A DNA stretch of 32,000 bases from Acaryochloris marina S15 (GTDB lineage: Bacteria > Cyanobacteriota > Cyanobacteriia > Thermosynechococcales > Thermosynechococcaceae), in NCBI RefSeq assembly GCF_018336915.1, contig NZ_CP064925.1, forward strand, positions 150,001 through 182,000. The letters are read 5' to 3'. Below the pieces are notes generated by a model, which did no database searches, was not told the DNA's origin, and was given only the letters and a program-made list of their open reading frames with translations. The position numbers and the translations under genes are program-made. Below are positions 4,879 through 25,474 of this stretch, piece by piece (the first letter of the stretch is position 1; each line of letters starts with the position of its first letter).

Positions 4879-5064
4879 AGATACTCTTTGACCTAAAAAA
4901 TTATCTAGTGCTGTTTCCTGACAAAGTGGCTACAAATGAATACACTTAATACTTAGTGATTCCTTCTTTAACTATTTTGGCAAGGCTTTACTGCTATCCA
5001 ATGATTTCTTGAAGACCTAGTGTTTTAGAATCAGCGGGAGCAACCCGCTGCCCCCTCACTATCA

Positions 5065-5711
5065 AGCCATCCCCAACCACACCACCTTCACCGCACAATC
5101 ATCTAGCTCTGCCAGTAGCTCCATATCCCATTTCATCTGATCGGTGATAGCAGACAACGCATTATCTTCCTCAACCAAAACCGTCAGCTCATACTCATTC
5201 CCCCTCTTCTTAGGTTTGACCATCTGATACGAACTCAAGACCTTTTCCTCGATCGCTTTCCTGACCGCACTCTTCTTCTTCCCTGAAACCTCAAGAGTCA
5301 GCCCTACCTGGACTGCATTCAAGGGCATATCCACAACCCTAATCTTGGGCCAGTTCGCACGCTCATCAACGATAGCCTTCAGCTCAATTGCCTTTTCAGC
5401 CACTGGCACCTCACTAAAAGCCACCAGCTCCTCCAGCGGCATCGGCTGTCGTTCCACTTCCCCTTTACTTTCTAAGAACACTCCTTTAGCCGTCCGATAC
5501 CGGACCTTCTGGGAATAGACCTCGAATGCCTTTACAGATCGCTGCCGCATCAACGTCATCGCCAAATATGCATCCATGCCATTCTCAATTAATTGACTCG
5601 CATAGGTATGTCGTCCTTTATGGGGATGAATATCAGGCCAGCCTGCATCTTGGGCCAAGGCTTTGACCATCTTATAGATCCCCTCATACCCCAACCGTTG
5701 ACCCTTATTTC
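5065..5711 (-). pseudogene. tyrosine recombinase (integrase), C-terminal fragment separated by an IS insertion
   Basis: Carries the catalytic-domain motifs HPHKGRHTYASQL (HxxR) and FEVYSQ (nucleophile Tyr region). The part of track ORF 5062..5826 above 5711 is read-through into the IS end. Confidence 0.85.
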
Positions 5712-7085
5712 CGTAGTGTCCCGATTTATTCGCCATGAGTTGAAATTCCTGAAATGCTGTATTAATAGTGACTTCAGAGCATTTCTTGATGAACATTGCC
5801 CAGCGCGAACAACAGATTATCCGCATCCAATCCCAAAGCTCCTATGCCTCTATTAACGAAGCCCTGGAAGCAACCCTACGCCTGGAAGCAAGCCAAGTCA
5901 CCCAGAAAATAATAGAGGCAGCACTAGACGAAGAAGTGCAAGCCTATCTATCCCAACTTCAAGGGACTCGACCTCGGCGCTCAGGTTATTATCAACGGGT
6001 TCTAGATACGCAGTATGGCAGGATCCCTCAACTGTCTGTCCCTAAACTACGTAAAGGGAACGCAGACCGAGAGTGGCAGATTTTAGAACGTTACCAACGT
6101 GCCCTTGGCAGTCTCCTCGATTTTTGCCTCGGCCTGTATGTCATGGGTTTATCGCTTCGGGACTTGCAAGAAGCTCTCTATGAGATTCTAGGAGCAGTCT
6201 TATCCGTTAATGCCATTAACCGAATTACGCTAAAAGCTCAGAAGCAAATGTTCCAAAGGCGTCAGACTCGTCTTGAGGAAACCCCTCCTATTCTGATTGT
6301 CGATGGTGTTTGGGCTAGTGTTCAGTGTTCCTCAGAAGACTTTTGGGAAGACCAAGCTGGGCATATCCGGAAACTACGCCATGCAGAAGACCGAGTCATT
6401 CTAGTCGCTATGGCAGTGTGGCCCGATGGCACCCAAACGGTGCTTCATTATGAAATGGCGACGCAAGAATCGGAGGCAGCTTGGTCACTATTCTTTGCGC
6501 ATCTGTGGCAACGGGGATTGCAACCCTATTCGGTGAAGTTGATTGTGAGTGATGGTACGACTGGGTTGCCTAAGGTGATTCGTGCTCTGTTTCCCCTCGC
6601 ACAACATCAACGCTGCATTACCCACAAGGTTCGAGCCATGCTGCGGCATTTAGGCTATGGGCAATTGTCGTACCTGGATGCGCAAGGACAAGAGCTTTCA
6701 CTTCCTGAAGCTAAGAAACAGCGGTATGCACAAATTCAACATGATGCCTACGCCATCTATAAAGCGCCCACCTGGGAAGGGGCAGTTATTTCATTTCTGG
6801 TGTTTGAGAAAAAGTGGACAGACATCGAACCTGACGCCGTCAGAACCTTTATCAACGATTGTGCCCTGACTTTGAACTTCTATGATTTTGATGCATCTCT
6901 TCACTCACTCATTCGAACCTCAAATGCACTCGAGCGGTTGTTCCGGGAATTCCGAACCAAGGCCGATGAAATTGGTGCGTTCCCTAATGAAGAGAGCTGT
7001 TTAGCAATTCTCTTCCTCGTTTTTCGTAGGGATCATGCCAAGCATGATCGGCTCAAAAACCGTGGCGAATAAATCGGGACACTAA
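5712..7085 (+). mobile_element. IS256-family insertion sequence (about 1.37 kb)
   Basis: The terminal IR TAGTGTCCCGATTTATTCGCC at 5714-5734 is perfectly repeated in inverted form at 7064-7084. It is flanked by a 9-bp direct duplication CCTTATTTC (5703-5711 and 7086-7094). Confidence 0.9.
5768..7072 (+). CDS. IS256-family (mutator-type) transposase
   Basis: 434 aa with DDE-region motifs LIVDGVW, LIVSDGTTGL and TSNALERLFREFRTK. The start may be the ATG at 5789 rather than the GTG at 5768. Confidence 0.9.
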   Translation: MTSEHFLMNIAQREQQIIRIQSQSSYASINEALEATLRLEASQVTQKIIEAALDEEVQAYLSQLQGTRPRRSGYYQRVLDTQYGRIPQLSVPKLRKGNADREWQILERYQRALGSLLDFCLGLYVMGLSLRDLQEALYEILGAVLSVNAINRITLKAQKQMFQRRQTRLEETPPILIVDGVWASVQCSSEDFWEDQAGHIRKLRHAEDRVILVAMAVWPDGTQTVLHYEMATQESEAAWSLFFAHLWQRGLQPYSVKLIVSDGTTGLPKVIRALFPLAQHQRCITHKVRAMLRHLGYGQLSYLDAQGQELSLPEAKKQRYAQIQHDAYAIYKAPTWEGAVISFLVFEKKWTDIEPDAVRTFINDCALTLNFYDFDASLHSLIRTSNALERLFREFRTKADEIGAFPNEESCLAILFLVFRRDHAKHDRLKNRGE

Positions 7086-7836
7086 CCTTATTTCGATGAC
7101 TCGTAGAGACAAACATCGGATCATCCGCTGTCATCCCTCCCTCACCGTCCACCATCCGAACTCGAAGATTAGCCCGCAGTGCTTCATCGGTTTGCTCATC
7201 GACAGGCACCCGACCCACGGATCCATGCTTGGCCTGACGGATAGTGATTTCCACCCCGTTATAATCCCCAGCATTGAGACTAGAGATTTCCTCTGCCCGC
7301 ATCCCGGCAAACACCATCAAACAGAGGATCGCCCGATCTCGTCTCTGTGTCTTCCGCTTCTCCAGTGCCTCAAACAGTGCTTCCACCTGAAACAGCTCTA
7401 GATTCTTCCCCTCCGTCTCTGGCGTTACTGGAATACTAATGGCCGCACCGGGATTGTCCTCGATATACCCAGCCTTCTTAAGCCAAGAAAAGAAGCTTTT
7501 AAGAGCCGTCAATATTGCCCCTACCGACCCCTGCTTTAACTGCTGACCTGACTCTAGATAAGTCTTGTAGCGTTTCAGATCGTTCATAGTAATCTGATGC
7601 CAGTCCTTGTTCACCCACAAACTGAACTGTCGTAGATGACGTTCATAGTTGCGTCGGGTGTTAGCCGCCAGGTTCTTCAGGGTGAGGAACTGTTCGATTC
7701 TGACTTGACGCAAGTTCACCACCGCTGGCTTAGGCAAGGGCGTTTCAGATGCAGGTTTGCTCTCCTCTAGTTTTTCTGTGCCGAACTCAATCAGACGGAC
7801 GGTTGGGATGTCGGAAGTTTGAGAGAAACGCGACAT
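7086..7836 (-). pseudogene. tyrosine recombinase (integrase), N-terminal fragment
   Basis: SAM-like N-terminal domain (NTRRNYERHLRQFSLWV...LKSFFSWL) and catalytic Arg region RDRAILCLMVFAGMRAEEISSL. The likely ATG is at 7836 (the track uses GTG 7848). The reading frame runs into the IS at 7085. Confidence 0.85.
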
Positions 7837-8150
7837 AGATTTGACCACAGAACGAACTTGAAGATCACTATATAAGATCGGTGATTGTTACTCCAGATTT
7901 CTATATATAGCACTACGCATTTTGCTTAGGACGGATTTCATGCTTAGAAGCTGGCAACCGAATAGTTCTGCTCGATGAATGTCTTAACACGCTTTAGTAG
8001 CGCTATAAAATCTGGAATAAGAATCACCGATCTAATAGTGTGATCTTGAACTTCATGCTCTGTGGTGTAATTGATGTTGCGTTTTGCTCAACGCTCCGAC
8101 ATTCCACCCGTCCGTCTCATTAAGCTTGACAGGAAAAACCGGAGGAGAAC
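7761..8150. repeat. Large imperfect inverted repeat (arms about 7761-7912 and about 8004-8150, spacer about 90 bp)
   Basis: My hand alignment of arm A with the reverse complement of arm B gives roughly three-quarters identity over about 150 bp. Example: GACGGACGGTTGGGATGTCGGAAGTTTGAGAGAAACGCGACAT versus GACGGACGGGTGGAATGTCGGAGCGTTGAGCAAAACGCAACAT, and GATCGGTGATT in both arms. Confidence 0.8.
8074..8150 (+). pseudogene. Relic 5' end of a second, divergently oriented integrase gene
   Basis: MLRFAQRSDIPPVRLIKL parallels MSRFSQTSDIPTVRLIEF of the integrase at 7836. Similarity stops near 8150, about 60 bp before the stop codon of the RND gene. Confidence 0.6.
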
Positions 8151-11200: not shown

Positions 11201-11392
11201 ATAGGCTTCCACTTCCTCCGGTGAAGATCCAGGGGCCTGGGTAATGACGGCTACCAGCGGACTTTCCACGTAGGGCATCATCCTCACTGGCAGCCCCAGT
11301 AAAACCAGTAGTGACAGGATCAAGATGCCGATATAGAATGCAGTCACTAGGACTGGATGCTTGATAGACCAGCGGGTAAGGAATTCTTTCAC
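8213..11392 (-). CDS. RND-superfamily efflux permease (module 1; putative metal efflux by context)
   Basis: 1059 aa with a typical RND N-terminus (FLTRWSIKHPVLVTAFYIGILI) and a TM4-type motif MAIGKLVDDSIIVIDAIEQ. It is the last gene of the adaptor/lipoprotein/pump operon. Substrate is not assignable from sequence alone. Confidence 0.85.
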   Translation of the reverse strand: MKEFLTRWSIKHPVLVTAFYIGILILSLLVLLGLPVRMMPYVESPLVAVITQAPGSSPEEVEAYITKPLEQRMTVLEDVRFVRSTSQQNLSIVTIQFGWGGNINRAVQSVQSLMNAAEGDTELQGLNARSYWVLPIDPLNRPVLTLALMGDQWDPVQLREFADNTLVDRLTQVENVQAVSILGGYRRQLQVIVDRQKLGAYGLSIVEVRDALDRNNLSQGSGILTQGDTEILVRTDERVQNAAALLAYPLLERDGQVVYLRDVATVEDTFEERRSSYRYNSQAALAVNIIQKPDSSSPAVIKRVRAELEKIKQEYPGLEFQEAYDNSFLVDIILQSTFKELLISVLLAGGVILLFLEDFRATALIMISIPMSLALSTLPFGPMQMSLNSSTLIGMMMAIGKLVDDSIIVIDAIEQKIRQGFRPLAAAIRGTGEVFLASVAASCVMVAALLPSMLSGGLTGLMFVGLVWPMIFAFVASVVVSVTLVPLLAAFFYRTWSPTRHKTWLQKLLTPISYSFRQLERGYSWLLQLTLRNREVTLAVIASTVVLAISLYPLVPQEMMPLGDSGQFMASLEMEAGSSFAKTDSSTAQLEALLLQQPEVEKVSSQVGFELTRNSTYFTGYSMGNANTASLTVTLKLNRKRDIWQVMDEVHAEAMATISGIRRLALKEMGVDVMATSAAPVQLAIYGNDLNILHKLANNVLRIAEETPGLMMAHTSAAMTQPELMLNIDRRRAQELGLNVEAIATQARFALNGGMTQRSYNRPNLRQNSILVRYDEVDRGTVQDLESTYLTTSYGKQVPMNTLVQLDYRQGPTLIEHVNGKRVVYVNGYYRRQGPASMDLSMAIAMRAGAELEIPPGYGIDSMGDMTDMMTEFTRLLDGLAISLVLIYIILVIQFNSFIHPLVMMLSVPLQLVGVFGGLILANQTLSTVSILGIIILSGLSLSAAILLLELIITKRKEGISREEAISQAGPVRLKAIVMTTLTTLIVVVRLAFFPEIGSDAYSSIATVILGGLVISTLLTLIVVPIVYTFVDDAIEFIKGLTQRRSQGKQRKSLQVNKP

Positions 11393-11397
11393 TAAAG

Positions 11398-11889
11398 TTA
11401 CTTGATGTTAAAGGCTAGGGTTGCAGGTTCAGCATCCTTGGCCTTCACCTGAACTGTCCAAGGACCTGCCATCCCAAAGTTGGTTTTAATTTTGAACTCC
11501 TGGTCTTTATCTCCGGGTTCCACAATGGCCAGGGAGGTCATATCTGCTTCGCCTTCCATAGGCATTGAGACTTGGACAGAGACATCATCTGGTGTGAGAT
11601 TCTCCTTTTCAACGTGGACCACAAGTTCGGCATCGCCCATGGGCATTTCGGCGGATTTAGGACTCACCAAATGAATATCCTTGGACTGTTTTGCCTGCTC
11701 TGTGCCTGATGTTTGGCTGTGGCCCATGTCTTCCCTATCGCCATCGGACTTGGATTTTGCCTGCTCTGTGGGAGCTTCTGCGCTGTCCGATGTCTCTGTA
11801 GCTTGTTCTCCTGATTGCGCACTACAGGAAAATAGAAATGTGCTCACGAGAGCGATCGCCAAAAATAATTTCTTCATATCAGTCCTCAT
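11398..11889 (-). CDS. lipoprotein with acidic His/Met-containing linker and Met-rich beta-sandwich-like domain (YtkA/FixH-like, tentative)
   Basis: Signal peptide with lipobox (MKKLFLAIALVSTFLFSC). The C-terminal roughly 90 aa (LVSPK...VSMPMEGEADM...FKIKTNFGMAGPWTVQVKAKDAE) is paralogous to the C-terminal domain of the adaptor at 11942-13720. There is a 5-nt gap to the RND gene. Confidence 0.7.
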   Translation of the reverse strand: MRTDMKKLFLAIALVSTFLFSCSAQSGEQATETSDSAEAPTEQAKSKSDGDREDMGHSQTSGTEQAKQSKDIHLVSPKSAEMPMGDAELVVHVEKENLTPDDVSVQVSMPMEGEADMTSLAIVEPGDKDQEFKIKTNFGMAGPWTVQVKAKDAEPATLAFNIK

Positions 11890-11941
11890 AATGAATGCTG
11901 TTGATATTGTTTGAGGTCAATTCAATTCCTCGAAAGGCGCT

Positions 11942-13720: not shown

Positions 13721-13785
13721 TTTTTTACTGAATCTGCCTAGCTGAACTGAATAAACGCTTGCTTACACAAGCATAAATACCAATT

Positions 13786-13802
13786 ATGAAATCAGGATGA
13801 GA
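13786..13802 (-). promoter_or_regulatory. Candidate response-regulator box: direct hexamer repeat with 11-bp spacing upstream of the module-1 efflux operon
   Basis: The plus strand reads ATGAAAtcaggATGAGA, which in gene orientation is TCTCAT-N5-TTTCAT. The proximal hexamer lies 66 nt from the ATG at 13720. The same architecture occurs at 22116-22132. Confidence 0.45.
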
Positions 13803-13908
13803 TAGCTGAGATCCAAACAATAGAAAAAAACTCAATCTAATGGGGATTGTTCGTTTCCCTTACAATGGCCAAATCAACTAAATGGTTGTGACAAACCAAT
13901 CAAGAACA

Positions 13909-14739
13909 TTATCTGGAGTGGATTATAACTGTCTCAGGCCAAGCTATTTCATTATGAAGTTGAACAATGGCAGAGGGTAATGGCTCTGGCAAACGAGTAG
14001 ATTCTGGCTTACCTTCAGTAGTTGCTGCGAAGATCAGGAATGCTCCCATACCAGCCATAATCGCGTTTTCGGCAAAGCTGATGATACCCAGTGGTGTCTT
14101 TGTATTCCCACCCACACAAGCACAATTCAACGCCAGCTTATCGATATAAACTGCCTTGAACACTGAGATAGCACCATTGACTCCAATCAACAGAGAACTA
14201 ATTCCGGTTAACAGTGGTGCCACTCCAGATAAGAAACCTAGGCCAATCAGCAGTTCCGCAAAGGGGTAAGTTCTACCATAGGGTTTGAATGTTTTGGTAA
14301 TAAGGTCATACTTTTGAAATCCTTCGACAAAGGCATCTAGATCCATCAGCTTCAGGGATGCCAGCATCGATAGTGATACCCCCATAAAACCTGTCATTTC
14401 TAACGAGGTTGCAAGGGTAATTAAACCAGCCGTGGAGAAGAGGGCAATCACAGGTGTGTAGGAGTAGTCAGCAGACTCAACTTCCACACCAAAATGTTGG
14501 GCCAGATCGGTATAGCCACCGATACGTTCCTCTCCAAAAAAAATTTGCGGCGTGGTGGGAACGTCATATTTTGCTTTAAATGCCTCCACCTCTTCCATAG
14601 AGCGCAATTGGTGGTCTTCATACTCAATGCTTTGCTCATTGAGCAAATTGATGGCCTTCAGGCCCCAGGGACAGTCATGGTCTGGGGTAGACATTCGATA
14701 GAGTCTAACAGTTGTCTGGGTTGTGTTTAAGGTCGTCAT
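13909..14739 (-). CDS. glutaredoxin-like domain fused to MauE/DoxX-like polytopic membrane domain
   Basis: The N-terminal Grx fold (VRLYRMS..DCPWG...PQIFFGEERIGGYTDL) has a single Cys in a CPWG motif. The C-terminal half is hydrophobic, with a vicinal CAC (LNCACVGG, C206/C208) as I recall for MauE-family proteins. Confidence 0.7.
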   Translation of the reverse strand: MTTLNTTQTTVRLYRMSTPDHDCPWGLKAINLLNEQSIEYEDHQLRSMEEVEAFKAKYDVPTTPQIFFGEERIGGYTDLAQHFGVEVESADYSYTPVIALFSTAGLITLATSLEMTGFMGVSLSMLASLKLMDLDAFVEGFQKYDLITKTFKPYGRTYPFAELLIGLGFLSGVAPLLTGISSLLIGVNGAISVFKAVYIDKLALNCACVGGNTKTPLGIISFAENAIMAGMGAFLIFAATTEGKPESTRLPEPLPSAIVQLHNEIAWPETVIIHSR

Positions 14740-14773
14740 AACTCACCTACTCTGTGCGATTAGAGTCATTCTT

Positions 14774-14806
14774 AAGCTAAACCCTACAGTTGACTAGAGA
14801 GTCAAG
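14774..14806 (-). promoter_or_regulatory. MerR-type promoter/operator driving the Grx-MauE gene
   Basis: In gene orientation: CTTGACTCTCTAGTCAACTGTAGGGTTTAGCTT. The -35 is TTGACT, the spacer is 20 bp and contains a dyad, and the -10 is TAGCTT. It is a near-copy of the promoter at 14836-14868 in inverted orientation. Confidence 0.6.
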
Positions 14807-14835
14807 GGGCCAACATCGCTTACCTGGATTATCAA

Positions 14836-14868
14836 CTTGACCCTATAGTCAACTGTAGGGTTTAAAGT
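14836..14868 (+). promoter_or_regulatory. MerR-type promoter/operator driving the merR-like gene (and probably the RR/HK genes)
   Basis: CTTGACCCTATAGTCAACTGTAGGGTTTAAAGT. The -35 is TTGACC and the -10 is TAAAGT, with a 20-bp spacer as in long-spacer MerR-family promoters. The dyad ACCCTATAGT/ACTGTAGGGT occupies 14840-14861. The -10 ends 27 nt before the ATG at 14896. Confidence 0.65.
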
Positions 14869-14895
14869 GAAGGTAGTTTTCAACCAAACGGAAAG

Positions 14896-15312
14896 ATGAC
14901 AACAGCCATACGCCTGAAAATTGGTGAGGTTCGACGGCAAACTGGGGTTGCTGTTGGGGCATTACGATATTACGAAAGCTTGGCGTTAATCCACTCAGAA
15001 CGCGGAGACAATGGCTACCGCTACTATCCCCAAGAGACTGTGCGGCAGGTGCAGTTTATCAAGAAAGCACAAACCTTGGGTTTCTCCCTAGAAGAGATTC
15101 GGGAAATCCTCAACATTCACCAACAAGGAGATATTCCTTGTGAATGGGTTCAATCCCTGCTTCAAGACAAGATTGAACAGCTTGACCATCAAATCCAGCA
15201 GATGATCACCTTTAAATCCGAATTGGAACACTATCGAGATCGCTGGGTGACCAACCAGCCTCGACCTCAAACCGATGATATCTGCCCTCTGATTGCAACG
15301 GTTTCCTTGTAA
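14896..15312 (+). CDS. MerR-family (metal-responsive type) transcriptional regulator
   Basis: N-terminal HTH IGEVRRQTGVAVGALRYYESLALI and a long dimerisation helix. Cys82 (IPCEW) is at the position of the conserved helix-start Cys of MerR/ZntR-type sensors. Cys130 sits in a C-terminal DDICPLI motif resembling the DCPII of CueR. Confidence 0.85.
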   Translation: MTTAIRLKIGEVRRQTGVAVGALRYYESLALIHSERGDNGYRYYPQETVRQVQFIKKAQTLGFSLEEIREILNIHQQGDIPCEWVQSLLQDKIEQLDHQIQQMITFKSELEHYRDRWVTNQPRPQTDDICPLIATVSL

Positions 15313-15317
15313 CGTTT

Positions 15318-16010
15318 ATGCGAGTTCTACTGGTCGAAGATGAACCAGATTTAGGCGCTGCCATCAAGCGCACTCTCACCCAAGAAGCCTATATCGTTGA
15401 TTGGGTTCAAGATGGTTTAGAGGCTTGGGGCTACCTGGAGAGTCAGTGGGCACAATATACTCTCGCCATTTTTGATTGGCTATTGCCAGGACTCTCCGGC
15501 GTGGAGCTGTGTCAACACCTCCGCACTCAGAATAGCCCCCTACCTATATTGATGTTGACGGCAAAAGATCGCCCGGAAGACACCGCCGAAGGCTTAGATG
15601 CGGGAGCCGACGATTATTTAGTCAAGCCTTTTCGTAAGATTGAGCTTTTGGCCCGACTGCGAGCATTGCAGCGACGTTCCCCCTACTTTCAACCTCAGCA
15701 ACTCCAGGTAGGACGGCTAACCTTAGACTATGGGACTCACAACGTCTCTATCGCGGACGTAGATGGGCAAGTCCCGCAAAGTGTTCTCCTGACCCACAAA
15801 GAATTTCAACTCCTAGAATATTTCATGCAGCATCCAACGCAGATTGTGACCCGCGATCAGATCCTCAACCAGCTCTGGGGGGCTGATGCTTATGCTGTTA
15901 GTAATGTGGTGGCCGCCCTCATGCGTCAACTGCGGCGCAAGCTTTCTGAACAGGGCTGTGAAAATGCCATTGAGACGATCTATGGTGTTGGCTATCGTCT
16001 CAGCCTATGA
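15318..16010 (+). CDS. OmpR/PhoB-family response regulator (module 1)
   Basis: Receiver domain (MRVLLVEDEPDL...DWLLPGLSG...LMLTAKD...GADDYLVKPF) and winged-helix output (...TIYGVGYRL). It starts 5 nt after the merR-like stop and overlaps the HK start by 4 nt. Confidence 0.9.
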   Translation: MRVLLVEDEPDLGAAIKRTLTQEAYIVDWVQDGLEAWGYLESQWAQYTLAIFDWLLPGLSGVELCQHLRTQNSPLPILMLTAKDRPEDTAEGLDAGADDYLVKPFRKIELLARLRALQRRSPYFQPQQLQVGRLTLDYGTHNVSIADVDGQVPQSVLLTHKEFQLLEYFMQHPTQIVTRDQILNQLWGADAYAVSNVVAALMRQLRRKLSEQGCENAIETIYGVGYRLSL

Positions 16011-17356
16011 ATGAGATAAAGCTATTTCGTCAGACGCGCTGGCGTTTGGCAACTTGGTATGCAGGTGTAATGGGCATCATTCTTGCCCTAAGCGCTTTGG
16101 GAGTTTATGAAGCCATTGATCATGCCCACCGGATTGCCGCAGATCGAGAATTAAAGTCCATTGCAGGCCGACTACATGACAACCTAGAACCCACGTTACA
16201 GCAGCCGGGTATTATCTCAGACGCTGCAAAGCGTTTCTTACCAAATTCTTGTGTTGGTTTCCATCAATGCTCAACGGCTATTGTTGCCAATCACTCACCT
16301 GGAGAGGTATTCCAAGGTGGCTACTACATTCGACTGCTCAGTCCTACCGAAGAACTCTTAGCCATGGCTGGACTCAAGACTCAGGGGTTGCCCATGACCT
16401 CACCGACGAAACCATGGCAATTTCTCAAGGACCAATCAAAAATCCGCTATCGCCAAATTACTCTACCGCTACAGAATTCAAATGTACCCCTATGGGGATA
16501 TTTGCAAGTGGGTAGTTCTCTGGAAGTCTCTGACCAATATCTGGCGTCCGTGAGATTGGCATTTTTTATCGGTTTCCCCTTAACACTAGCTTTTGTGGGA
16601 GTGGCCAGTTGGTGGCTAGCAGGGCGGGCGATGCGCCCAATTCATCAGTCTTATCAGCAGATGCAGCAGTTCACCGCCGATGCCGCCCATGAGTTGCGGA
16701 CGCCCATTGCCGCAGCACAAGCAACGGTAGAATCCGTCTTAGACGCTCCTCACCTTTCGGAAACCGAGACGCGAGAGACACTTAAAGTTCTGGATCGTCA
16801 ACACCAGCGCTTGTCACAACTGATTCAAGACTTGCTGTTGCTAACGCGATTGGATCGTCAGGCCCAAACCAGCCCGGAGCAGTCCTGTTGTCTTCAAGAT
16901 TTGGTGAATGATATTGCTGAAGAGTTGGCAGCTCTGGCCTTGAATAAACAGGTGCAACTCCAAACTGATATTCAGGTTGATCAGCCGCTGCGGGTTAATG
17001 GGGATGAAGCACAGTTGTACCGCCTCGTCTTCAATCTGGTGATCAATGCGATTCAGCATACTCCTGAAGGGGGCAAAGTCACACTTTCGCTAGAGAAGAA
17101 AGACCAGCAGGCGGTGATACAGGTGCAAGATACGGGAGTAGGGATTACCCCTGAATACCAATCAAAAATCTTTGACCGCTTTTATCGCGTGAATAGCGAT
17201 CGCAACCGACAAACGGGCGGCTCGGGTTTGGGGCTGGCGATTGCTCAGGCGATTGCAAAAGCGCATAGAGGCAAGATCCAGGTCCAGAGCCGATTAGGTC
17301 AAGGTTGTTCTTTTCGAGTTTACCTTCCCCAGGCAACGAAGTACCCCCTATGCTAG
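16007..17356 (+). CDS. sensor histidine kinase with periplasmic sensor domain (module 1)
   Basis: Two TM segments flank a periplasmic loop of about 150 aa. It has an H-box FTADAAHELRTPIA, an N-box LVINAIQHTP, and G-boxes QDTGVGI and GGSGLGLAIA. Confidence 0.9.
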   Translation: MNEIKLFRQTRWRLATWYAGVMGIILALSALGVYEAIDHAHRIAADRELKSIAGRLHDNLEPTLQQPGIISDAAKRFLPNSCVGFHQCSTAIVANHSPGEVFQGGYYIRLLSPTEELLAMAGLKTQGLPMTSPTKPWQFLKDQSKIRYRQITLPLQNSNVPLWGYLQVGSSLEVSDQYLASVRLAFFIGFPLTLAFVGVASWWLAGRAMRPIHQSYQQMQQFTADAAHELRTPIAAAQATVESVLDAPHLSETETRETLKVLDRQHQRLSQLIQDLLLLTRLDRQAQTSPEQSCCLQDLVNDIAEELAALALNKQVQLQTDIQVDQPLRVNGDEAQLYRLVFNLVINAIQHTPEGGKVTLSLEKKDQQAVIQVQDTGVGITPEYQSKIFDRFYRVNSDRNRQTGGSGLGLAIAQAIAKAHRGKIQVQSRLGQGCSFRVYLPQATKYPLC

Positions 17357-18236: not shown

Positions 18237-21200
18237 TCAGTCAATGACTTTCGATATTGATGCACTGTTATGGGCCTGTGCTGTCTTTATATCTGTCCGG
18301 ATAGGCTTGGGCATAAACCAGCGACCAAACCGGGCATAGAGGGCCGGAATCACCAGCAAAGTGAGAGCTGTGGAGGTGAACAACCCTCCCAGGACAACAA
18401 TCGCCAATGGCTGGAGGATTTCGTTGCCTGCACCGTTGGTGATTGCCAGGGGCAACATCCCCAGGGCTGAGGTCAAGGCTGTCATCAGAATGGCGTTTAC
18501 TCGTTCTAGTGAACCGTGGAACACCGCTTTCTGGAGTGGCAATCCCTCAGCAAACTTGCTGTTGTAATTGTCCACCAGCAATAAACCATTGCGAACGGCC
18601 ACCCCAAACAGGGTGATGAAACCGATCAATGAGGCTACTGACATAACACCACCTGTCAATAGGATAGAGACGATTCCCCCTACCAGTGCTAGGGGTAGGT
18701 TGATCATGATCGCCACGGTTGCAGGGAGGGATTTGATGGAGAGGAACATCAGCACCGCAATCGCAATCGCCGCCAGAATGCTGTACACCAACAGATTATT
18801 AGTGGCGCTTTGCTCTGCCTCGAACTGCCCACCATACTGAATGAAGTAGCCTTTGGGCAATTGCACCTTCTCTTGGATCTGGGTTTGGATATCACTAACG
18901 ACGCTGCCCAGATCTCGATCAGAAACGTTTGCCGACACCACAATCAGGCGAGACACATCTTCGCGGTTGACGACATTTGCCCCCATACCATAGCCAACCT
19001 TAGCCACATCACCTAGTGAAATCACTTCTCCTGTTGATGTCGAAAGGGGAATGGCACTGATGGCATCCAAGCTACTGCGAGCCGATTCGGGCAATGTGAC
19101 GGTAATATCAATCAACTGCTGATCTTCTGGCACCTGAGAAACAACCCGACCGTTCAGGGCCGTTTCCACCACGGTCGAGAGTTGGGCCATCGTCAGACCA
19201 TAGCCCGCTGCGGCTTTCCGATCGTACTGAATCTGCACCTGGCGAATGGGCAGTTGAGGCTCAAGCTGTAAATCCACTATCCCTGCAATCGGTTCGACGG
19301 TATCGCGTACCTGTTCACCAATACTCCGAAGTTCGGCCAGGTCCGGACCAAAGATTTTGATCGCAATTGCGCTCCGTACCCCAGAGAGGACCTCATCCAT
19401 CCGGTGAGAGATAAACCCACCCACGTTAGGCGCGACCCCAGGCAGTTTCAGGAATGCTTCTCGCAGTTGCTTAACGCTAGCGTCCCGATCCTTCAAGGCT
19501 TGGTCGCTGAGTTCGATATCGACGTGGGCCATGTTCACACCCGCACCATCAGCATCGCCCGGAGAACGACCAGCCCTTACCTGCACCCATTTATACAGAG
19601 GATTGTCCTTCAAAGAGTTGGCCAGGGCATTGCCCGCGCCATTGGTGATATCCAGCGAGATGCCGGGAAACAGCACCATTGAATTTACAAGAGATGTTTC
19701 CTGAAACTCTGGCAGAAACACCCGCCCCAATGACGGCACGATCACTGCGACTGCCACCAAGGCCGCTAGAGCCAGGGCGAGAATAAGCTGAGGGACTCGC
19801 ATTGACAACCTCAGCAGCGGTCGATAGAGCTGTTCGGCCAATCGTGACACGAACGTACCTTCCTGGGGCAAATTCTGATTTGCTAGCAAAATGGCACAGA
19901 GGGCAGGCGATAAGGTCATCGCCACTAGAGTGGAAGCCAGAATTGAGAACAGATAGGCCAGTCCCATTGGGGCAAAGATGCGACCCTCCACCCCGGTCAA
20001 GCTAAAGATAGGAGCAAACACGACGACAATAATCACCGTGGAAAAAATCACTGCTAGCCGTACCTGAACTGAGGTATCAAACACCACTTGAAAAGAAGGT
20101 TTGGGATTGCCCTGGGCCTGATTCTGGCGCAGACCACGATAGCAGTTCTCCATATCCACAATTGCATCGTCCACCACCGAGCCGATGGCAACTACGAGCC
20201 CCCCCAAGGTCATCGTGTTGATGCCCAGGCCAAAGGCTTTCATGAACAGTAGGCCAATCAGCAGCGATAGAGGAATGGCGCTGAGGGTGATAATCGCCGT
20301 GCGCCAGTTCATCAAAAACAGCAACAGGATCACTGATACGATCACCACCCCCTGCAGGAGAGAGCCGCTGACATTGCGAATAGCCAAATCAATGAAGTTA
20401 GCCTGCCGAAACGTGCGGGTCACCTGCACATCTCCTGGGAAGGTGGCTCGCAAATCAGCGATCACATCCTCAACTGTTTTAGTGACGGTGGGTGTATCCA
20501 CTGCTGGCTGCTTATTAATCATCAACACCACCGCTGGCTGACCATTCAGGCTGGCATCACCCCGCTTCAGAGCGGCTCCAGTCTGCACAGTGGCCACATC
20601 CCGTAGCAAAATCGGCTGGTCATTCTGTATCTTGACGACCGATCCCTGCAAGTCCTCAATGGATTGAATTTGCCCCATGCCTCGCACTAGCAGTTCCCGG
20701 CCCCCTCCAATCAAGAAGCCACCTGGCGCATTGGAATTGGCACCGGTAGCAGCAGTAGTGACTTCATTGAGGGATACGTTGAGATCCCTCAGCTTTGCAG
20801 GATCAATCAGGATCTGTTCCTGTCGCTCATCACCCCCATAAATCGTCACCTGGGAAACGCCTGGGACTGAGAGAATCTGGTTTCTCAGGGTGACATCTAC
20901 CAGGCGACGCAGATCAATCATGGACGTCTGTCCTTGACCATCAACGGTGAAGGCGTACTGCAAAATCGTGCCCAACGGTGACACCAACGGTGAGATTTCT
21001 GGCGGATGAGTATTTTCGGGGAGTTGGCTGGTGACCTGTTGCAAGCGTTCAGTCACGGCTTGGCGTGCTTGATAGATGTCGGCATCTTGATCAAACACGA
21101 CGCTGACCATCGACAGACCCACCTTTGAGGACGATCTCACCGTCGTTACCCCTGGCAAGCCATTGACCGAACTCTCAATGGGCACGGTGATCTGAGTTTC

Positions 21201-21395
21201 CACTTCTTCAGGGGCTAGGCCGATGACTTCCACCTGGATATCTACCTGGGGCGGGGCGAAGGATGGGAACACATCCAGTGGCATTTGGGTGACGCTGAAG
21301 ATACCCCAAATCGTGACCGCGATCGCCCCCGCGACAATGAACCATCGCTGAGCAATGGAATTTTTGAGAATTTGATTCAGAAGTGCATTCAGCAT
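18237..21395 (-). CDS. RND-superfamily efflux permease (module 2; CusA/CzcA-like by motif and context)
   Basis: 1052 aa. The TM4 region GGLVVAIGSVVDDAIVDMENCYRGL resembles the ...IVxxENxxR motif of heavy-metal RND pumps as I recall it. It lies immediately downstream of an adaptor-like gene and divergent from an RR/HK pair. Confidence 0.85.
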   Translation of the reverse strand: MLNALLNQILKNSIAQRWFIVAGAIAVTIWGIFSVTQMPLDVFPSFAPPQVDIQVEVIGLAPEEVETQITVPIESSVNGLPGVTTVRSSSKVGLSMVSVVFDQDADIYQARQAVTERLQQVTSQLPENTHPPEISPLVSPLGTILQYAFTVDGQGQTSMIDLRRLVDVTLRNQILSVPGVSQVTIYGGDERQEQILIDPAKLRDLNVSLNEVTTAATGANSNAPGGFLIGGGRELLVRGMGQIQSIEDLQGSVVKIQNDQPILLRDVATVQTGAALKRGDASLNGQPAVVLMINKQPAVDTPTVTKTVEDVIADLRATFPGDVQVTRTFRQANFIDLAIRNVSGSLLQGVVIVSVILLLFLMNWRTAIITLSAIPLSLLIGLLFMKAFGLGINTMTLGGLVVAIGSVVDDAIVDMENCYRGLRQNQAQGNPKPSFQVVFDTSVQVRLAVIFSTVIIVVVFAPIFSLTGVEGRIFAPMGLAYLFSILASTLVAMTLSPALCAILLANQNLPQEGTFVSRLAEQLYRPLLRLSMRVPQLILALALAALVAVAVIVPSLGRVFLPEFQETSLVNSMVLFPGISLDITNGAGNALANSLKDNPLYKWVQVRAGRSPGDADGAGVNMAHVDIELSDQALKDRDASVKQLREAFLKLPGVAPNVGGFISHRMDEVLSGVRSAIAIKIFGPDLAELRSIGEQVRDTVEPIAGIVDLQLEPQLPIRQVQIQYDRKAAAGYGLTMAQLSTVVETALNGRVVSQVPEDQQLIDITVTLPESARSSLDAISAIPLSTSTGEVISLGDVAKVGYGMGANVVNREDVSRLIVVSANVSDRDLGSVVSDIQTQIQEKVQLPKGYFIQYGGQFEAEQSATNNLLVYSILAAIAIAVLMFLSIKSLPATVAIMINLPLALVGGIVSILLTGGVMSVASLIGFITLFGVAVRNGLLLVDNYNSKFAEGLPLQKAVFHGSLERVNAILMTALTSALGMLPLAITNGAGNEILQPLAIVVLGGLFTSTALTLLVIPALYARFGRWFMPKPIRTDIKTAQAHNSASISKVID

Positions 21396-21432
21396 CTATC
21401 GAGAATTTCCCCTAACTGTTGGAATAGGTGTC

Positions 21433-22068
21433 TTATGAGAGGGTGTTTTTCTTTTTACGACCGTTGCTGATCAACACAATCGCCACGACAGATAACCCAA
21501 TGCCGCCTCCCACTGCAGCCAGCAGAGTCTTAGGCATACCACCAGATTTTTCAGCGGTGGCAGCTTCACTGGGATCGCCTTTGACCATATCGCCTTTCTC
21601 GTCGGCCTGAGCATGAGCTTCATTGGTTGCAGGCGCTGCTTCTGTAGCTTGAGTTTTGCGAGACTCAGCATACAGAGACAAGCTGCCCTCAGTCACTAGC
21701 TGCTCATCAACCGATAACCCTTCCAAAACTTCGACCATTTCGCCTTTGGTTGCTCCTGTGGTGACGGGCACCGGCTCATAGAAATTTTCGTACTGCACAA
21801 ATACCAATTGCCGACCGTTATCTTCGACCAGAGCAGTCACGGGAATCATGACAGTACCACTAGCATCAGCGGCAGGCTCAATAGAGGTGACCTTAATGCC
21901 GAGCAACGAATCGGTTTGAGTGTTGACCTCGACGCGATTCACGCCGCCTTCAGCCTGGAACTCATCGCCATGACCCACGTGGGCCAGGGCAGCAGGTGTG
22001 CTCATAGCAAGGCTCAAGGCTAGAATAGAACTCAATAAGGGCAACTGCTTCATGGTATTTCCTCGCAA
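21433..22068 (-). CDS. short adaptor-like periplasmic protein (membrane-proximal domain only) with C-terminal TM anchor
   Basis: Probable start is the ATG at 22053 (MKQLPLLSSILALSLAMSTPAALA signal peptide), giving a mature N-terminus HVGHGDEF. The segment IPVTALVEDNGRQLVFVQ...VPVTTGATKGEMVEVLEGLSVDEQLVTEGSLSL aligns with the C-terminal segment of the long adaptor (VPQTALHQFRGQPAVWVV...IKQGLVSGDRVEIFKGLKSGDRVITTGTSRL). The C-terminus is LLAAVGGGIGLSVVAIVLISNGRKKKNTLS. Confidence 0.65.
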   Translation of the reverse strand: MRGNTMKQLPLLSSILALSLAMSTPAALAHVGHGDEFQAEGGVNRVEVNTQTDSLLGIKVTSIEPAADASGTVMIPVTALVEDNGRQLVFVQYENFYEPVPVTTGATKGEMVEVLEGLSVDEQLVTEGSLSLYAESRKTQATEAAPATNEAHAQADEKGDMVKGDPSEAATAEKSGGMPKTLLAAVGGGIGLSVVAIVLISNGRKKKNTLS

Positions 22069-22115
22069 TTTTCGACAGCACGCAGCAAAATCCCCAACAG
22101 GATGCCACAGGGCAG

Positions 22116-22132
22116 ATGAAAATCAGATGAAA
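22116..22132 (-). promoter_or_regulatory. Candidate response-regulator box upstream of the module-2 efflux operon
   Basis: The plus strand reads cagATGAAAatcagATGAAAtg, which in gene orientation is TTTCAT-N5-TTTCAT. The proximal hexamer lies 63 nt from the ATG at 22053, versus 66 nt in module 1. Confidence 0.5.
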
Positions 22133-22170
22133 TGAGCACGACTCCGGTAGAATCGGCTTCGTGGTGGATA

Positions 22171-23404
22171 TAGATCTTCAGAAAAGCATCCGTGGTTTTA
22201 GCGACACTACATCTTCATTAAATATAGTAACTAGCTCCTGATACTCTTAGCTCTGGCAAGGATTTCAAGATTATCAGAGGTCATCCAGTATGCTCGCACA
22301 ATTCAAACTGCGCTTTACCCAATCAACACGCAAAAAGATTGAAGCTAAACTGCGCCAGGCATACGGGAGTCAGAATTTACGTCTGGTCAAACGTATTAGT
22401 GCTTTATTGCAGCTTGGTCAAGGTGGTTCAGTGGCACAGGTAGCTGAAACATTGGCACTAGGCGAACAAACGATCAGGGATTATCTGCATGCATTTCTAA
22501 AACGAGGTATCGCTAGCTTTAGATACAAAGCGTCTCAAGGACGTCGCAGCAAACTCACTCCACGGCAACGACAACAGCTCAAGTCATGGATTAAAGCAGG
22601 TCCGCTCAAAGCTGGATACGAGTGTGGTTGTTGGAGTGCATTAATGGTTCAAGACCTGATTGCGAAACGCTTCAATGTTTCCTATCATCCCCATTATGTG
22701 AGTACTCTACTGAGGAACTTAGGCTTTTCATTTCAAAGAGCACGGTTTGTTGCAGCTCATCTCAATGAAGCCAAGCGACAAGAATGGATGACACACAAAT
22801 GGCCTGAGATTTTGCGTTTATCAGCAGCCAAAGATGCCCTAATTTTATTTGGGGATGAGGCCAGTTTTGCGCAGTGGGGGTCGTTAAGCTACACCTGGAG
22901 TCTTCGTGGAGACCAGCCAACATTGCCCACCAGTGGTAAACGGAAGGCTTACAAGGTGTTTGGATTAATTGATTATCATTCTGGTCAGTTCTTCTATCAA
23001 GGTCAGACGGGACGCTTCAATTCTGAAGGGTATACTGCTTTTCTAACTCAAGTACTCCAGCAGACTCACAAGCATATTATTCTCATTCAGGACGGGGCTA
23101 GATATCACACCAGTAAAGCAACTAAGCAGTTCTTTGACCAGCAATCCGCTCGCCTTACTCCTTTCCAATTACCCACATATTCTCCTGACTTCAACCCAAT
23201 TGAATTCTTGTGGAAGAAACTCAAAAAACGCAGCACACACCTACGGTTCTTCAAGCAATTTGATGACTTAGTTCAGCAGGTCGATGAGGGGCTACTGTAC
23301 TTTAGTCAGACTCCCAATGAAATTACTGTCTTAATGGGCAAATATTGCAAAACCTTGGGTACACAAGCTGCCTAGCTAATCACGGATCTTTATCTGTAGA
23401 TCTA
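22171..23404 (+). mobile_element. IS630-family insertion sequence (1234 bp) with TA target duplication
   Basis: The ends are TAGATCTTCAGAAAAGCATCCGTGGTTTTAGC (left) and, reverse-complemented, TAGATCTACAGATAAAGATCCGTGATTAGC (right). TA flanks both ends (22169-22170 and 23405-23406). Confidence 0.85.
22290..23375 (+). CDS. IS630-family (Tc1/mariner-like DDE) transposase
   Basis: 361 aa with an N-terminal HTH region, then LFGDEASF, IILIQDGARYH and LPTYSPDFNPIEFLWKKLK motifs. Confidence 0.9.
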   Translation: MLAQFKLRFTQSTRKKIEAKLRQAYGSQNLRLVKRISALLQLGQGGSVAQVAETLALGEQTIRDYLHAFLKRGIASFRYKASQGRRSKLTPRQRQQLKSWIKAGPLKAGYECGCWSALMVQDLIAKRFNVSYHPHYVSTLLRNLGFSFQRARFVAAHLNEAKRQEWMTHKWPEILRLSAAKDALILFGDEASFAQWGSLSYTWSLRGDQPTLPTSGKRKAYKVFGLIDYHSGQFFYQGQTGRFNSEGYTAFLTQVLQQTHKHIILIQDGARYHTSKATKQFFDQQSARLTPFQLPTYSPDFNPIEFLWKKLKKRSTHLRFFKQFDDLVQQVDEGLLYFSQTPNEITVLMGKYCKTLGTQAA

Positions 23405-23417
23405 TAGCTTCGGTGCT

Positions 23418-24113
23418 ATGCGGATTCTACTGGTAGAAGACGAAGAAGATTTGGGACTGGCGATTAAGCAAGTGCTGGTCGGGGAAAAGTACGTGGTGGA
23501 CTGGGTTACTGACGGGGCGCAAGCATGGCACTGCTTGGAAAGCCAGTGGACGGATTACACTGTGGCGATTTTTGACTGGCTGCTGCCAGAACTCTCCGGC
23601 CTAGAGCTATGTCAGCGACTCAGAGCACGTCAAAATCCACTCCCAGTGTTGATGCTGACTGCTTTGGGACAACCTGAAAATCGCATCGCTGGGCTGGATG
23701 CGGGAGCCGACGATTATTTGGTGAAACCCTTCGTCATGGAGGAACTGTTAGCACGACTGCGGGCCTTACAGCGGCGATCTCCCCAGTTAAAGCCCCAACA
23801 GTTAACCGTGGGTGTTTTTACCCTAGATGATGCTAACACGCTGCTTCAAATCGACCTCCCCGATCAGCCTGTCCAGGAGATTCCTCTCACACTGAAAGAG
23901 TTTCAGGTGTTGGCCTACCTGATGGAAAATTGTGATCGTATCATCCCCGGCAGTAAGCTACGCTCCCAGTTATGGGACATTGACGAAGAACCCATCAGTA
24001 ATGTCGTCGCCGCTCAGATCCGCCTGTTGCGCCGCAAGTTTGACCGCTATGACTGCGATTGTCCCATCGAAACAGTACCGGGGCAGGGATATCGCTTTAG
24101 GATATCCCCATGA
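23418..24113 (+). CDS. OmpR/PhoB-family response regulator (module 2)
   Basis: A paralog of the RR at 15318, sharing MRILLVEDEEDL, FDWLLPELSG, LMLTA, GADDYLVKPF and LARLRALQRRSP. Its ATG is only 13 nt from the IS630 end, and it overlaps the HK start by 4 nt. Confidence 0.9.
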   Translation: MRILLVEDEEDLGLAIKQVLVGEKYVVDWVTDGAQAWHCLESQWTDYTVAIFDWLLPELSGLELCQRLRARQNPLPVLMLTALGQPENRIAGLDAGADDYLVKPFVMEELLARLRALQRRSPQLKPQQLTVGVFTLDDANTLLQIDLPDQPVQEIPLTLKEFQVLAYLMENCDRIIPGSKLRSQLWDIDEEPISNVVAAQIRLLRRKFDRYDCDCPIETVPGQGYRFRISP

Positions 24114-25474
24114 ATAGCCAACAGCTTTTTCGTCGGAGTCGCCTGCGGTTAGCCGCCTGGTATGCCCTGGTCATGGGAGGGATTTTGGGCCTATTGGGCT
24201 TGGGAATGGCCCACATTCTGGTGCAAGCGAACTGGGCCGCACTAGAGCGTGAAATTGAGTCCAGTGCGGGGACGTTGCACGATAGCCTAGAACCAATGCT
24301 GCCCCCTGCACAAGACCCGACAGGGGTGCTGCAGCAAATCTTTCCTGATCTGTGTGTAGTAGAGCAACCCTGTGAACCTAATCCATCTCTGATTCAACGC
24401 CACACCTTAGGAATTAGCGATCGGACCACGTATTACATTCGCCTATTCGATAACCAGGGAAACCTGCTGGCCTATTCCCCCAATCAGCCAGAATCGCTGT
24501 CTTCCACCCTAAACCCCGATACCTGGCAAACCCTACAAACCAAAGATAGCCACCGCTATCACCAGTTCACCACCATTCTTCACGGTGCGGCCCACACCCA
24601 TGCTCTCGATGAGGAACCTCACAAAGCTCCCTCCTGGGGATATCTTCAGGTGGGACGGACCCTTGCCGCTTTTGATGCAGAACGGCAGCGGTTGCAGTGG
24701 ATTTTAATTGGGGGCTTACCCTTGGCATTGGGGTTGGTTGCCGTTTCGAGTTGGTGGCTATCGGGTAGGGCAATGCAGCCGATTTATCAGTCCTACCGAC
24801 AGCAGCAGCAGTTTACCGCCAATGCTGCCCATGAGTTGCGGTCGCCCCTTGCCAGCCTTCTTGCTACGGTAGAAGCTATTCTCCGTCTACCACCAACACA
24901 GTCGGAACAAGTGCCAACGTTGTTGAAAACGGTGGAGCGTCAGGGTCATCGTTTAAGTCAGCTTGTGACCGATCTTCTCTTGTTGACCAGTCTGGAGCAA
25001 AATACTACGGCACAACCGCCCCAACCTTGCTGCTTGAACGATATCGTTGCCGACTTGGCAGAGGAATTTGCAGAGTTAGCTGCCACAACCCAAATCCATC
25101 TCAATCATCAGATACCCGATATCGAAATCCGCATCATGGGTCAGGAATCGCAACTCTATCGCCTGGTGTCTAACCTGATGGCCAATGCGATTCAGTACAC
25201 GCCACCAGGTGGTTCGGTCATGGTGTGTTTAGCTGCTCACGATCGTATTGCCACTATTGCCGTCAAAGATACGGGAATTGGCATTCCTCTAGAAGCGCAA
25301 AGCCATGTTTTTGAACGCTTTTATCGAGTGAACAGCGATCGCTCTCGTCAAACTGGGGGTATGGGGTTAGGACTTGCCATTGCTAAAGCAATTGTGCAAC
25401 GGCACCGGGGGCAACTTGCCCTTGATAGTGAGATGGGGCAAGGCAGTGTATTTACTATTTCGCTTCCTTCTTGA
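24110..25474 (+). CDS. sensor histidine kinase with periplasmic sensor domain (module 2)
   Basis: A paralog of the HK at 16007, with H-box FTANAAHELRSPLA, N-box LMANAIQYTP and G-boxes KDTGIGI and GGMGLGLAIA. Confidence 0.9.
   Translation: MNSQQLFRRSRLRLAAWYALVMGGILGLLGLGMAHILVQANWAALEREIESSAGTLHDSLEPMLPPAQDPTGVLQQIFPDLCVVEQPCEPNPSLIQRHTLGISDRTTYYIRLFDNQGNLLAYSPNQPESLSSTLNPDTWQTLQTKDSHRYHQFTTILHGAAHTHALDEEPHKAPSWGYLQVGRTLAAFDAERQRLQWILIGGLPLALGLVAVSSWWLSGRAMQPIYQSYRQQQQFTANAAHELRSPLASLLATVEAILRLPPTQSEQVPTLLKTVERQGHRLSQLVTDLLLLTSLEQNTTAQPPQPCCLNDIVADLAEEFAELAATTQIHLNHQIPDIEIRIMGQESQLYRLVSNLMANAIQYTPPGGSVMVCLAAHDRIATIAVKDTGIGIPLEAQSHVFERFYRVNSDRSRQTGGMGLGLAIAKAIVQRHRGQLALDSEMGQGSVFTISLPS

Follow-up and report, generated by a model that had tools for sequence, protein, structure and literature searches.

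NrsB of Acaryochloris marina S15: probably a periplasmic adaptor reduced to its pump-proximal domain and paired with the RND permease NrsA

Introduction

Few inducible promoters and loci see as much use in cyanobacterial biology as nrsB, whose product usually goes by the name of a CzcB-like membrane fusion protein belonging to a tripartite RND pump. In Synechocystis, nrs is inducible by nickel and cobalt and nrs mutants are nickel-sensitive (PMC4284471); NrsBAC has been treated there as an RND (resistance-nodulation-division) efflux system, with no remark on the bridging domains that are missing from NrsB (PMC4284471). We analysed a 32,000-nucleotide stretch of Acaryochloris marina S15 (assembly GCF_018336915.1, contig NZ_CP064925.1, positions 150,001 to 182,000 of the forward strand), hereafter the window, in which a short gene directly precedes the gene of a full-length RND permease. 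Judged by homology and gene order, this short gene is an intact nrsB ortholog, paired with nrsA and controlled by the adjacent nrsRS (rppAB) genes. An earlier note on the window, made from the letters without database searches, had missed this identity; the pair is already known as nrsBA. The gene pair, its regulation and its nickel phenotype are published, and what is under-appreciated is the architecture of the whole nrsBA system.

Among described adaptors, CusB and SilB bind metal through a flexible N-terminus ahead of the membrane-proximal (MP) domain, and the MP domain contacts the pump. An engineered form, SilB1 (residues 28-112, Gly, 329-430), adopts the fold of the corresponding region of native SilB and contains its two Ag+ sites, of which one lies N-terminally and the other in the flexible C-terminal tail (PMC10407283). 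Domain loss is known among adaptors, whose build is modular: BesA of Borrelia has no hairpin and EmrA no MP domain (PMC4446572). BesA and EmrA have lost one domain each and still bridge to an outer-membrane factor (OMF), whereas NrsB lacks three and keeps the MP domain alone. We propose that NrsB is probably a periplasmic adaptor cut down to its pump-proximal end, working in a two-component inner-membrane NrsBA unit and derived by an ancient internal loss.

Results

Architecture of NrsB

The two genes, and the parts of the NrsB protein, lie in the window as follows.

18237..21395, minus strand: nrsA ortholog, encoding a full-length HME-RND (heavy-metal efflux RND) permease of 1052 aa; co-directional with nrsB and 37 bp downstream of it
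21433..22053, minus strand: nrsB ortholog, 206 aa; the mechanically called open reading frame (ORF) runs on to a TTG at 22068
21982..22053, minus strand: Sec-type signal peptide, aa 1-24, MKQLPLLSSILALSLAMSTPAALA, ending in ALA before the mature H and without a lipobox Cys; from direct reading of the sequence
21958..21981, minus strand: mature N-terminal motif HVGHGDEF, aa 25-32, a putative periplasmic metal-binding site; from its invariance in the alignment
21655..21936, minus strand: MP adaptor domain, aa ~40-133; from model confidence (pLDDT), Foldseek, and profile and NCBIfam matches
21532..21654, minus strand: low-complexity Ala/Glu/Thr linker, aa 134-174; pLDDT ~50, with length and composition varying in the alignment
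21466..21531, minus strand: C-terminal transmembrane (TM) helix, aa 175-196; a modelled helix
21436..21465, minus strand: basic cytoplasmic tail NGRKKKNTLS, aa 197-206; net-positive in most relatives

The ATG at 22053 is the start in all homologs, and the ORF at 21433..22068(-) therefore yields a product of 206 aa, close to the ~205 aa that the earlier note had given for the gene upstream of the pump. This product is 99.5% identical to WP_235112195, a 'cobalt transporter' encoded on plasmid pMB03 of Acaryochloris sp. 'Moss Beach'. In a 25-member alignment, the hydrophobic N-terminus and the A-x-A boundary before H were equivalent in every homolog, in line with the Sec-type signal peptide and the mature HVGHGDEF end that had been read from the window by eye. 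The motif is followed by the strand region VEVNTQTDSLLGIKVTSIE and then by about 75 residues resembling the extreme C-terminus of CzcB-type adaptors, so that the MP domain of the short protein is an N-terminal strand fused directly to a C-terminal beta-roll. The likeness that the note had seen to the C-terminal end of the 592-aa adaptor encoded by a separate RND module of the window (module 1) proved real though weak (residues 43-132 against 376-470, with 28% identity over 95 aa and E 8e-6). Both the sequence and the AlphaFold2 model bore out the Ala/Glu/Thr-rich linker followed by a TM helix and a basic tail, and the positive-inside rule would place the NrsB N-terminus in the periplasm.

An AlphaFold2 model of NrsB built from the 25-sequence alignment contains a single folded domain (pLDDT 90-97 for residues ~40-133), with low confidence for the N-terminal motif and for the linker; given the low pLDDT, the HVGHGDEF segment is probably flexible. 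Foldseek searches of the PDB with this model returned almost exclusively adaptor MP domains (rmsd 0.9-2.1 A over 55-71 residues), including those of CusB in CusBA, TMexC, TriAB, MexA, AcrA, ZneB and BesA. The best PDB match, both by fold and by sequence profile (profile E 1.3e-13), was 5A4G, an engineered SilB construct in which the N-terminal metal-binding site is fused to the MP domain, and the profile match covers query residues 39-135 as one continuous stretch. Profile and fold searches thus place the core among adaptor MP domains. A CusF-type metallochaperone, which is a small soluble OB-fold beta-barrel, was considered and rejected: the fold matches are to adaptor MP domains only, and the protein is membrane-tethered.

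The NCBIfam matches are confined to the same region. Specifically, residues 58-130 match only the last ~70 positions of TIGR00999 (CzcB/NccB; E 3e-11, 42.9 bits against a cut-off of 319.3) and of TIGR01730 (RND_mfp; E 7e-9, 35.1 bits against a cut-off of 94.9), so that both whole-protein cut-offs are missed. A Pfam scan of the short protein gave no HlyD_D23 or HlyD_3 match for a beta-barrel, for which the protein is also too short, and no Biotin_lipoyl or coiled-coil match for a lipoyl domain or an alpha-hairpin, whereas the full-length relative P0184 matched HlyD_D23, HlyD_3 and Biotin_lipoyl in the same scan; the lack of lipoyl, hairpin and main barrel regions had been surmised from the letters. 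The AlphaFold2 model has no long helices besides the signal peptide and the TM helix. The scan with the local Pfam-A copy found nothing at all in the short protein, although precomputed tables list PF259xx adaptor-domain families for its homologs; because the local copy missed these families, we relied instead on the NCBIfam, PDB profile and fold searches.

The tether departs from the usual adaptor criterion, as there is neither an N-terminal lipid nor an N-terminal TM helix and a C-terminal TM helix is present instead. A sorting-signal reading of this C-terminus was rejected: no PEP-CTERM, LPXTG or GlyGly-CTERM model matched at E<=1 in NCBIfam, in keeping with the note, which had recognised no PEP-CTERM or LPXTG motif, and the full-length relatives have a different sequence before the TM helix (PWW...). 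As far as the sequence tells, the helix and basic tail are a generic anchor.

Comparison with known adaptors and origin of the short form

NrsB shares with adaptors of the CusB/SilB/ZneB type (CzcB family) a homologous MP domain preceded by a flexible N-terminus that bears metal ligands, and the genes of both lie directly upstream of a CusA/CzcA-family RND gene. Unlike these adaptors, NrsB has no beta-barrel, lipoyl domain or alpha-hairpin, carries His/Glu instead of Met ligands, loses its signal peptide by cleavage and is anchored by a C-terminal TM helix rather than by an N-terminal lipid or TM helix, and is encoded without an OMF in its operon. The constructs 5A4G and SilB1 fuse directly the same two segments as NrsB, fold on their own and retain the metal sites, but they are laboratory truncations, soluble, and bind Ag/Cu through Met; by this analogy, NrsB is a natural counterpart of the engineered SilB constructs.

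Some full-length cyanobacterial adaptors (445-605 aa) carry HxGHG[DN]EF right after the signal peptide together with a C-terminal TM helix. Seven such proteins (P0163, P0181, P0184, P0192, P0194, P0197 and P0216) have a cleaved signal peptide and a C-terminal instead of the usual N-terminal anchor. They share with NrsB the N-terminal motif and strand, the MP domain and the C-terminal anchor, but retain the lipoyl, hairpin and barrel regions and, in the case of P0184, are linked to an OMF of the OEP family. The operon of P0184 (517 aa) has the order MerR-adaptor-RND-159aa-OEP (L092:8001-15020), and its RND protein is 62% identical to the window pump. The NrsB alignment profile matches the full-length adaptors as two pieces, for example residues 3-63 and 373-460 of P0184, and the junction at profile positions 62/63 skips about 310 residues (lipoyl, hairpin and barrel) of the full-length relatives. 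The shared N-terminal motif, the shared C-terminal anchor and the two-piece match together suggest derivation by internal deletion, and NrsB is best read as a descendant of this full-length cyanobacterial adaptor type that lost about 310 internal residues long ago. The tail anchor that the earlier note had attributed to the short adaptor is present, but it is not peculiar to the short form; to judge from the full-length relatives, it is inherited and no novelty. Another full-length HxGHG[DN]EF adaptor gene adjoins a DUF305 (CopM-like) gene. Other short proteins matching residues 60-150 were considered as further families with an MP domain only and were rejected, being N-terminally truncated fragments of full-length adaptors.

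Conservation of the family

A word-indexed protein search with the NrsB ortholog gave 781 matches and an exhaustive representative search 369, of which 57 had E<=1e-10; the strong matches were nearly all 190-245 aa long. When one genome per GTDB species was scanned, 476 loci were found to encode an NrsB relative. Counts of linkage, neighbours and taxonomy given here at the level of loci refer to the best 80 of these 476, all of them cyanobacterial without exception. The short form is therefore not a recent internal deletion, a possibility raised at the outset, but is fixed across cyanobacteria.

Within the 25-member alignment, which reaches down to 26% identity, H25, G27, H28, E31 and F32 at the mature N-terminus are invariant, as are G52, P71, P94, G100, V120, G123 and L127. 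The H.GH..EF motif is present in 193 retrieved relatives, full-length adaptors included, and a C-terminal hydrophobic segment follows in 168 of them, with a net-positive tail in 164 of the 168; the relatives lacking the segment are mostly fragments, plus a few full-length adaptors that fell under the chosen hydropathy threshold.

Further variation was seen in the linker and in copy number. Many orthologs (P0050, P0104, P0120 and others) have the His-rich linker motif HAQADAxGIPHSHD, a candidate second metal site comparable to the C-terminal one for Ag+ in SilB; the Acaryochloris linker retains only HAQAD of this motif, and the Synechocystis copies have none of it. On a plasmid of Chondrocystis NIES-4102, nrsB is duplicated in tandem (L091:7484-8594), and one copy, of 136 aa, stops right after the MP domain without linker or TM helix and would be a soluble form. 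Additional partial nrsB copies occur in loci L049 and L077.

Linkage to the RND gene

The RND gene lies directly downstream on the same strand in 77 of the 80 loci, and the protein it encodes shares 78-94% identity with the window pump; the three remaining contigs end before a downstream gene could appear. The window RND protein itself passes the TIGR00914 CusA/CzcA model of NCBIfam (806.8 bits against a cut-off of 701), and its alignment with CusA spans residues 6-1021. Orthologs of the window's response regulator and kinase are divergently upstream in most of the 80 loci. Two very divergent subfamilies, one from Microcoleus (about 29-36% identity) and one from a marine metagenome contig (about 34-38% identity), also lie directly upstream of an RND gene, with the divergent nrsRS pair absent; the neighbouring genes make the marine metagenome contig look like that of a picocyanobacterium. 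Since the linkage is kept in divergent subfamilies without nrsRS, the RND gene is the invariant partner of nrsB. The association with RND genes in cyanobacteria, which the earlier note had singled out as worth surveying, thus held both in these 77 loci and in the divergent subfamilies.

No other efflux component shows such linkage. A full-length adaptor was present within 8 kb in only one of the 80 loci, and distant from the nrsBA pair there; tblastn with one OEP-family OMF query found no OMF within +/-8 kb of nrsBA in any locus. In the window, where the note had found no OMF encoded by either RND module, none is annotated within about 18 kb on either side. Among 65 loci inspected 3' of the RND gene for an OMF, an adaptor or nrsC, no conserved third gene was found, and the largest downstream clusters were a kinase and an NrsD-like MFS protein (7 of 65 loci each).

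Identity of the locus as nrs

Upstream of nrsB, the window carries the regulatory genes in divergent orientation.

23418..24113, plus strand: nrsR (rppA), response regulator; NCBIfam equivalog RppA, 376 bits against a cut-off of 250
24110..25474, plus strand: nrsS (rppB), sensor histidine kinase; NCBIfam equivalog RppB, 671 bits against a cut-off of 400

The RppA/RppB equivalog models are also passed by the second two-component pair of the window, that of module 1; rppA is the same gene as nrsR and sll0797 (PMC4759255). We reached the nrs locus of Synechocystis PCC 6803 through NrsD ('nickel resistance', 445 aa) and then retrieved its chromosomal neighbourhood, in which nrsS and nrsR are followed by genes for the 215-aa NrsB, the 1054-aa NrsA, the 227-aa NrsC and the 445-aa NrsD. 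We take nrsB and nrsA of PCC 6803 to be slr0793 and slr0794. Beyond nrsD there are a MerR/CbiC regulator and a P-type ATPase, an ArsR-type regulator and an HMA P-type ATPase, and a two-component system with a DUF305 gene. This order matches the published succession of nrs, cor/coa, zia and copMRS (PMC4284471), establishing the identity of NrsB.

Aligned over their full length, PCC 6803 NrsB and the window protein share 51% identity (E 9e-62), and they have in common the signal peptide, HVGHGDEF, the MP core, the linker, the TM helix and the partial NCBIfam profile match. On plasmid pSYLC of Synechocystis PCC 6714, rppB and rppA are followed by genes for a 219-aa family member, a CusA/CzcA RND protein, a glycoside hydrolase and an MFS protein with a His-rich tail. 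The window RND protein is 78% identical to the one at the nrsA position of PCC 6714, the Synechocystis copy used for this comparison. In addition, a Chondrocystis homolog carries the annotation nrsB. As in the PCC 6803 cluster, nrsS and nrsR of the window are divergent from nrsB and nrsA; the window differs, as does pMB03, in having no nrsC or nrsD, and also in being plasmid-borne and in having an IS630 element between nrsB and nrsR. An NrsD-like MFS gene is confined to 7 of 65 loci, which leaves nrsBA as the conserved core.

NrsC, the third part of 'NrsBAC' as usually drawn, has 227 aa (PCC 6803, L095:9203-9886; also L090:11880-12563). Its only convincing PDB relatives are phage lambda lysozyme structures (1AM7/3D3D, E 4.6e-6), and PGAP annotates the PCC 6714 ortholog as a glycoside hydrolase. 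The protein is too small for an OMF, and its gene is missing from most nrsBA loci, including that of the window. Going by these matches and its length, NrsC is not an outer-membrane factor.

Neither the searchable literature nor comprehensive adaptor reviews yielded a statement that the bridging domains are missing from NrsB, a search that did not take in the original nrs paper of 2000; under slr0793, NrsB or HME5, the searchable literature gave no structural description of NrsB either.

IS630 and other insertions

The intergenic region between nrsB and nrsR is split by a transposable element of the insertion sequence (IS) class.

22054..22170, strand not assigned: part of the nrsB-nrsR divergent intergenic (promoter) region attached to nrsB; identical to pMB03 up to the insertion point
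22171..23403, plus strand: IS630-family insertion with TA duplication; transposase ORF at 22290-23375 with Pfam DDE_3 and HTH matches

The IS630 is separated from the nrsB ATG by 117 bp and from the nrsR ATG by 14 bp, being upstream of both. There is no IS630 at this site in pMB03, whose 128-bp intergenic region is otherwise identical, and copies of the element occur on other plasmids of the same strain. Compared with pMB03, the insertion is a recent secondary event that left the nrsB coding sequence untouched. It probably uncouples nrsRS from its native promoter and may alter the induction of nrsBA. A truncation of nrsB by the IS was rejected, as the same gene is intact in pMB03, which has no IS; the note had likewise judged against such an artefact, from the gene's own signal peptide and the ~100 bp between it and the insertion point.

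A second insertion relative to pMB03 occupies window positions 5712-7085, with a 434-aa transposase-like ORF at 5768..7072(+), and splits a tyrosine recombinase gene, intact in pMB03, into 5062..5826(-) and 7033..7848(-). Module 1 (window 8213-17356) is unusual in its accessories and contains, in addition to the pump and the 592-aa adaptor, which has a C-terminal YtkA domain, genes for a glutaredoxin-MauE fusion, a stand-alone YtkA/FixH-like lipoprotein located between adaptor and pump, a MerR regulator and the second RppA/RppB-type pair.

Discussion

Proposed function of NrsBA

Taken with the features of described adaptors, the architecture of NrsB suggests a working model. Cleavage of the signal peptide would expose a free HxGHxxEF N-terminus in the periplasm, while the C-terminal TM helix would tether NrsB beside NrsA in the same membrane. 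Like its counterparts in CusB and AcrA, the MP domain may dock on the NrsA trimer at the periplasmic porter domain; the His-rich tips could capture periplasmic Ni(II)/Co(II) and either deliver the metal to the pump or activate the pump. Lacking both hairpin and barrel, NrsB cannot extend to an outer-membrane channel, and therefore NrsBA most likely exports only to the periplasm; it would move metal from the cytoplasm or the membrane into the periplasm, from which the metal could leave via porins or other routes. On these grounds, the nrs system probably cannot work as an envelope-spanning three-part pump, and NrsB is most likely a subunit that is tethered to the membrane and docked on NrsA, where it would load metal or gate the pump without bridging to the outer membrane. 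A stronger version, that NrsBA is a self-sufficient two-component HME-RND machine in a diderm, with a loading or activating adaptor consisting of an MP domain only and no connection to an outer-membrane channel, is put forward tentatively, and we hold it to be somewhat less probable than its contrary.

Several points weigh against this model. Docking of NrsB on NrsA is drawn from likeness to CusB and AcrA, and metal binding by HxGHxxEF from its invariance and the analogy with CusB and SilB. The docking subdomains of NrsA, within approximate boundaries, are conserved at about 0.85-0.87 compared with 0.88-0.93 for the porter and TM regions, a degree of conservation also compatible with a persisting contact of NrsA with an OMF or a trans-encoded adaptor. 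Release into the periplasm is productive only if the substrate comes from the cytoplasm or the membrane, a matter debated for HME-RND pumps. The OMF survey consisted of a single tblastn query over +/-8 kb. Furthermore, the His patch in the linker of the window protein is degenerate, and the IS separates nrsRS from the shared promoter region.

Alternative explanations

The main rival, unlikely in our judgement but deserving serious attention, is that NrsB is an accessory metallochaperone, similar to CusF or to the CusB N-terminus, and that a full-length adaptor encoded in trans and a TolC-like channel complete the NrsA pump, with two adaptors as in TriABC. NrsA has retained a conserved docking domain, pumps with two adaptors exist and TriAB is among the fold matches, and full-length adaptors of the same clade are encoded with OMFs elsewhere in cyanobacteria. 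Against this, 79 of the 80 loci, and the distant subfamilies, have no linked full-length adaptor or OMF, and the related RND protein that does use a full-length adaptor has both adaptor and OMF in its own operon; moreover, NrsB retains a complete MP docking domain and a tether, neither of which would be required of a soluble chaperone. The loss of the bridging domains would also be explained if NrsBA resided in the thylakoid membrane, or in both membrane systems, and moved metal between cytoplasm and lumen, where there is no outer membrane to reach. Circumstantial signs are that the family was seen only in cyanobacteria among the loci examined and that CopS, the sensor of the neighbouring copper system, is found in both plasma and thylakoid membranes (PMC4284471). 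However, a Sec signal peptide and an anchor of this kind fit either membrane equally, and resistance suits export from the cell better than loading of the lumen, making this explanation rather improbable.

The position of nrsB, divergently adjoining nrsRS in most loci, and its candidate metal ligands could also indicate that NrsB serves the NrsS kinase as a periplasmic co-sensor and is no subunit of the pump. We give this even less weight, because in the divergent subfamilies the RND gene is retained while the upstream nrsRS pair is missing, the fold is that of the pump-docking domain of adaptors, and nrsB is co-directional with nrsA at a distance of 37 bp. Least credible of all is that the gene is a decaying or IS-truncated, functionless remnant of a full-length adaptor. 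An IS630 does lie 117 bp upstream and full-length relatives do exist, but the comparative data refute this idea: the gene is intact in the IS-free pMB03, its length, motifs and architecture are kept across 476 genomes with a core that is 50-85% identical, and NrsB of PCC 6803 has the same form.

Implications

If NrsBA is a pump with a pump-proximal adaptor and no bridge, the usual tripartite drawing of 'NrsBAC' would be wrong twice, as NrsB cannot bridge and NrsC is lysozyme-like rather than an OMF. By the sequence data, the whole NrsB family, spread over hundreds of cyanobacterial species and including the PCC 6803 prototype, consists only of a pump-proximal domain, putative metal-ligand tips and a membrane tether, and in none of the loci surveyed is it linked to an OMF. 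The modelling of cyanobacterial nickel/cobalt efflux needs to change accordingly. NrsBA would be a natural minimal system in which activation and metal hand-over are separated from the bridging role of adaptors. As such, it may address a question in the RND field, namely whether the MP domain and the N-terminal tail serve as a substrate funnel or as an allosteric switch apart from bridging, and would bear on whether HME-RND pumps can act usefully without export across the whole envelope.

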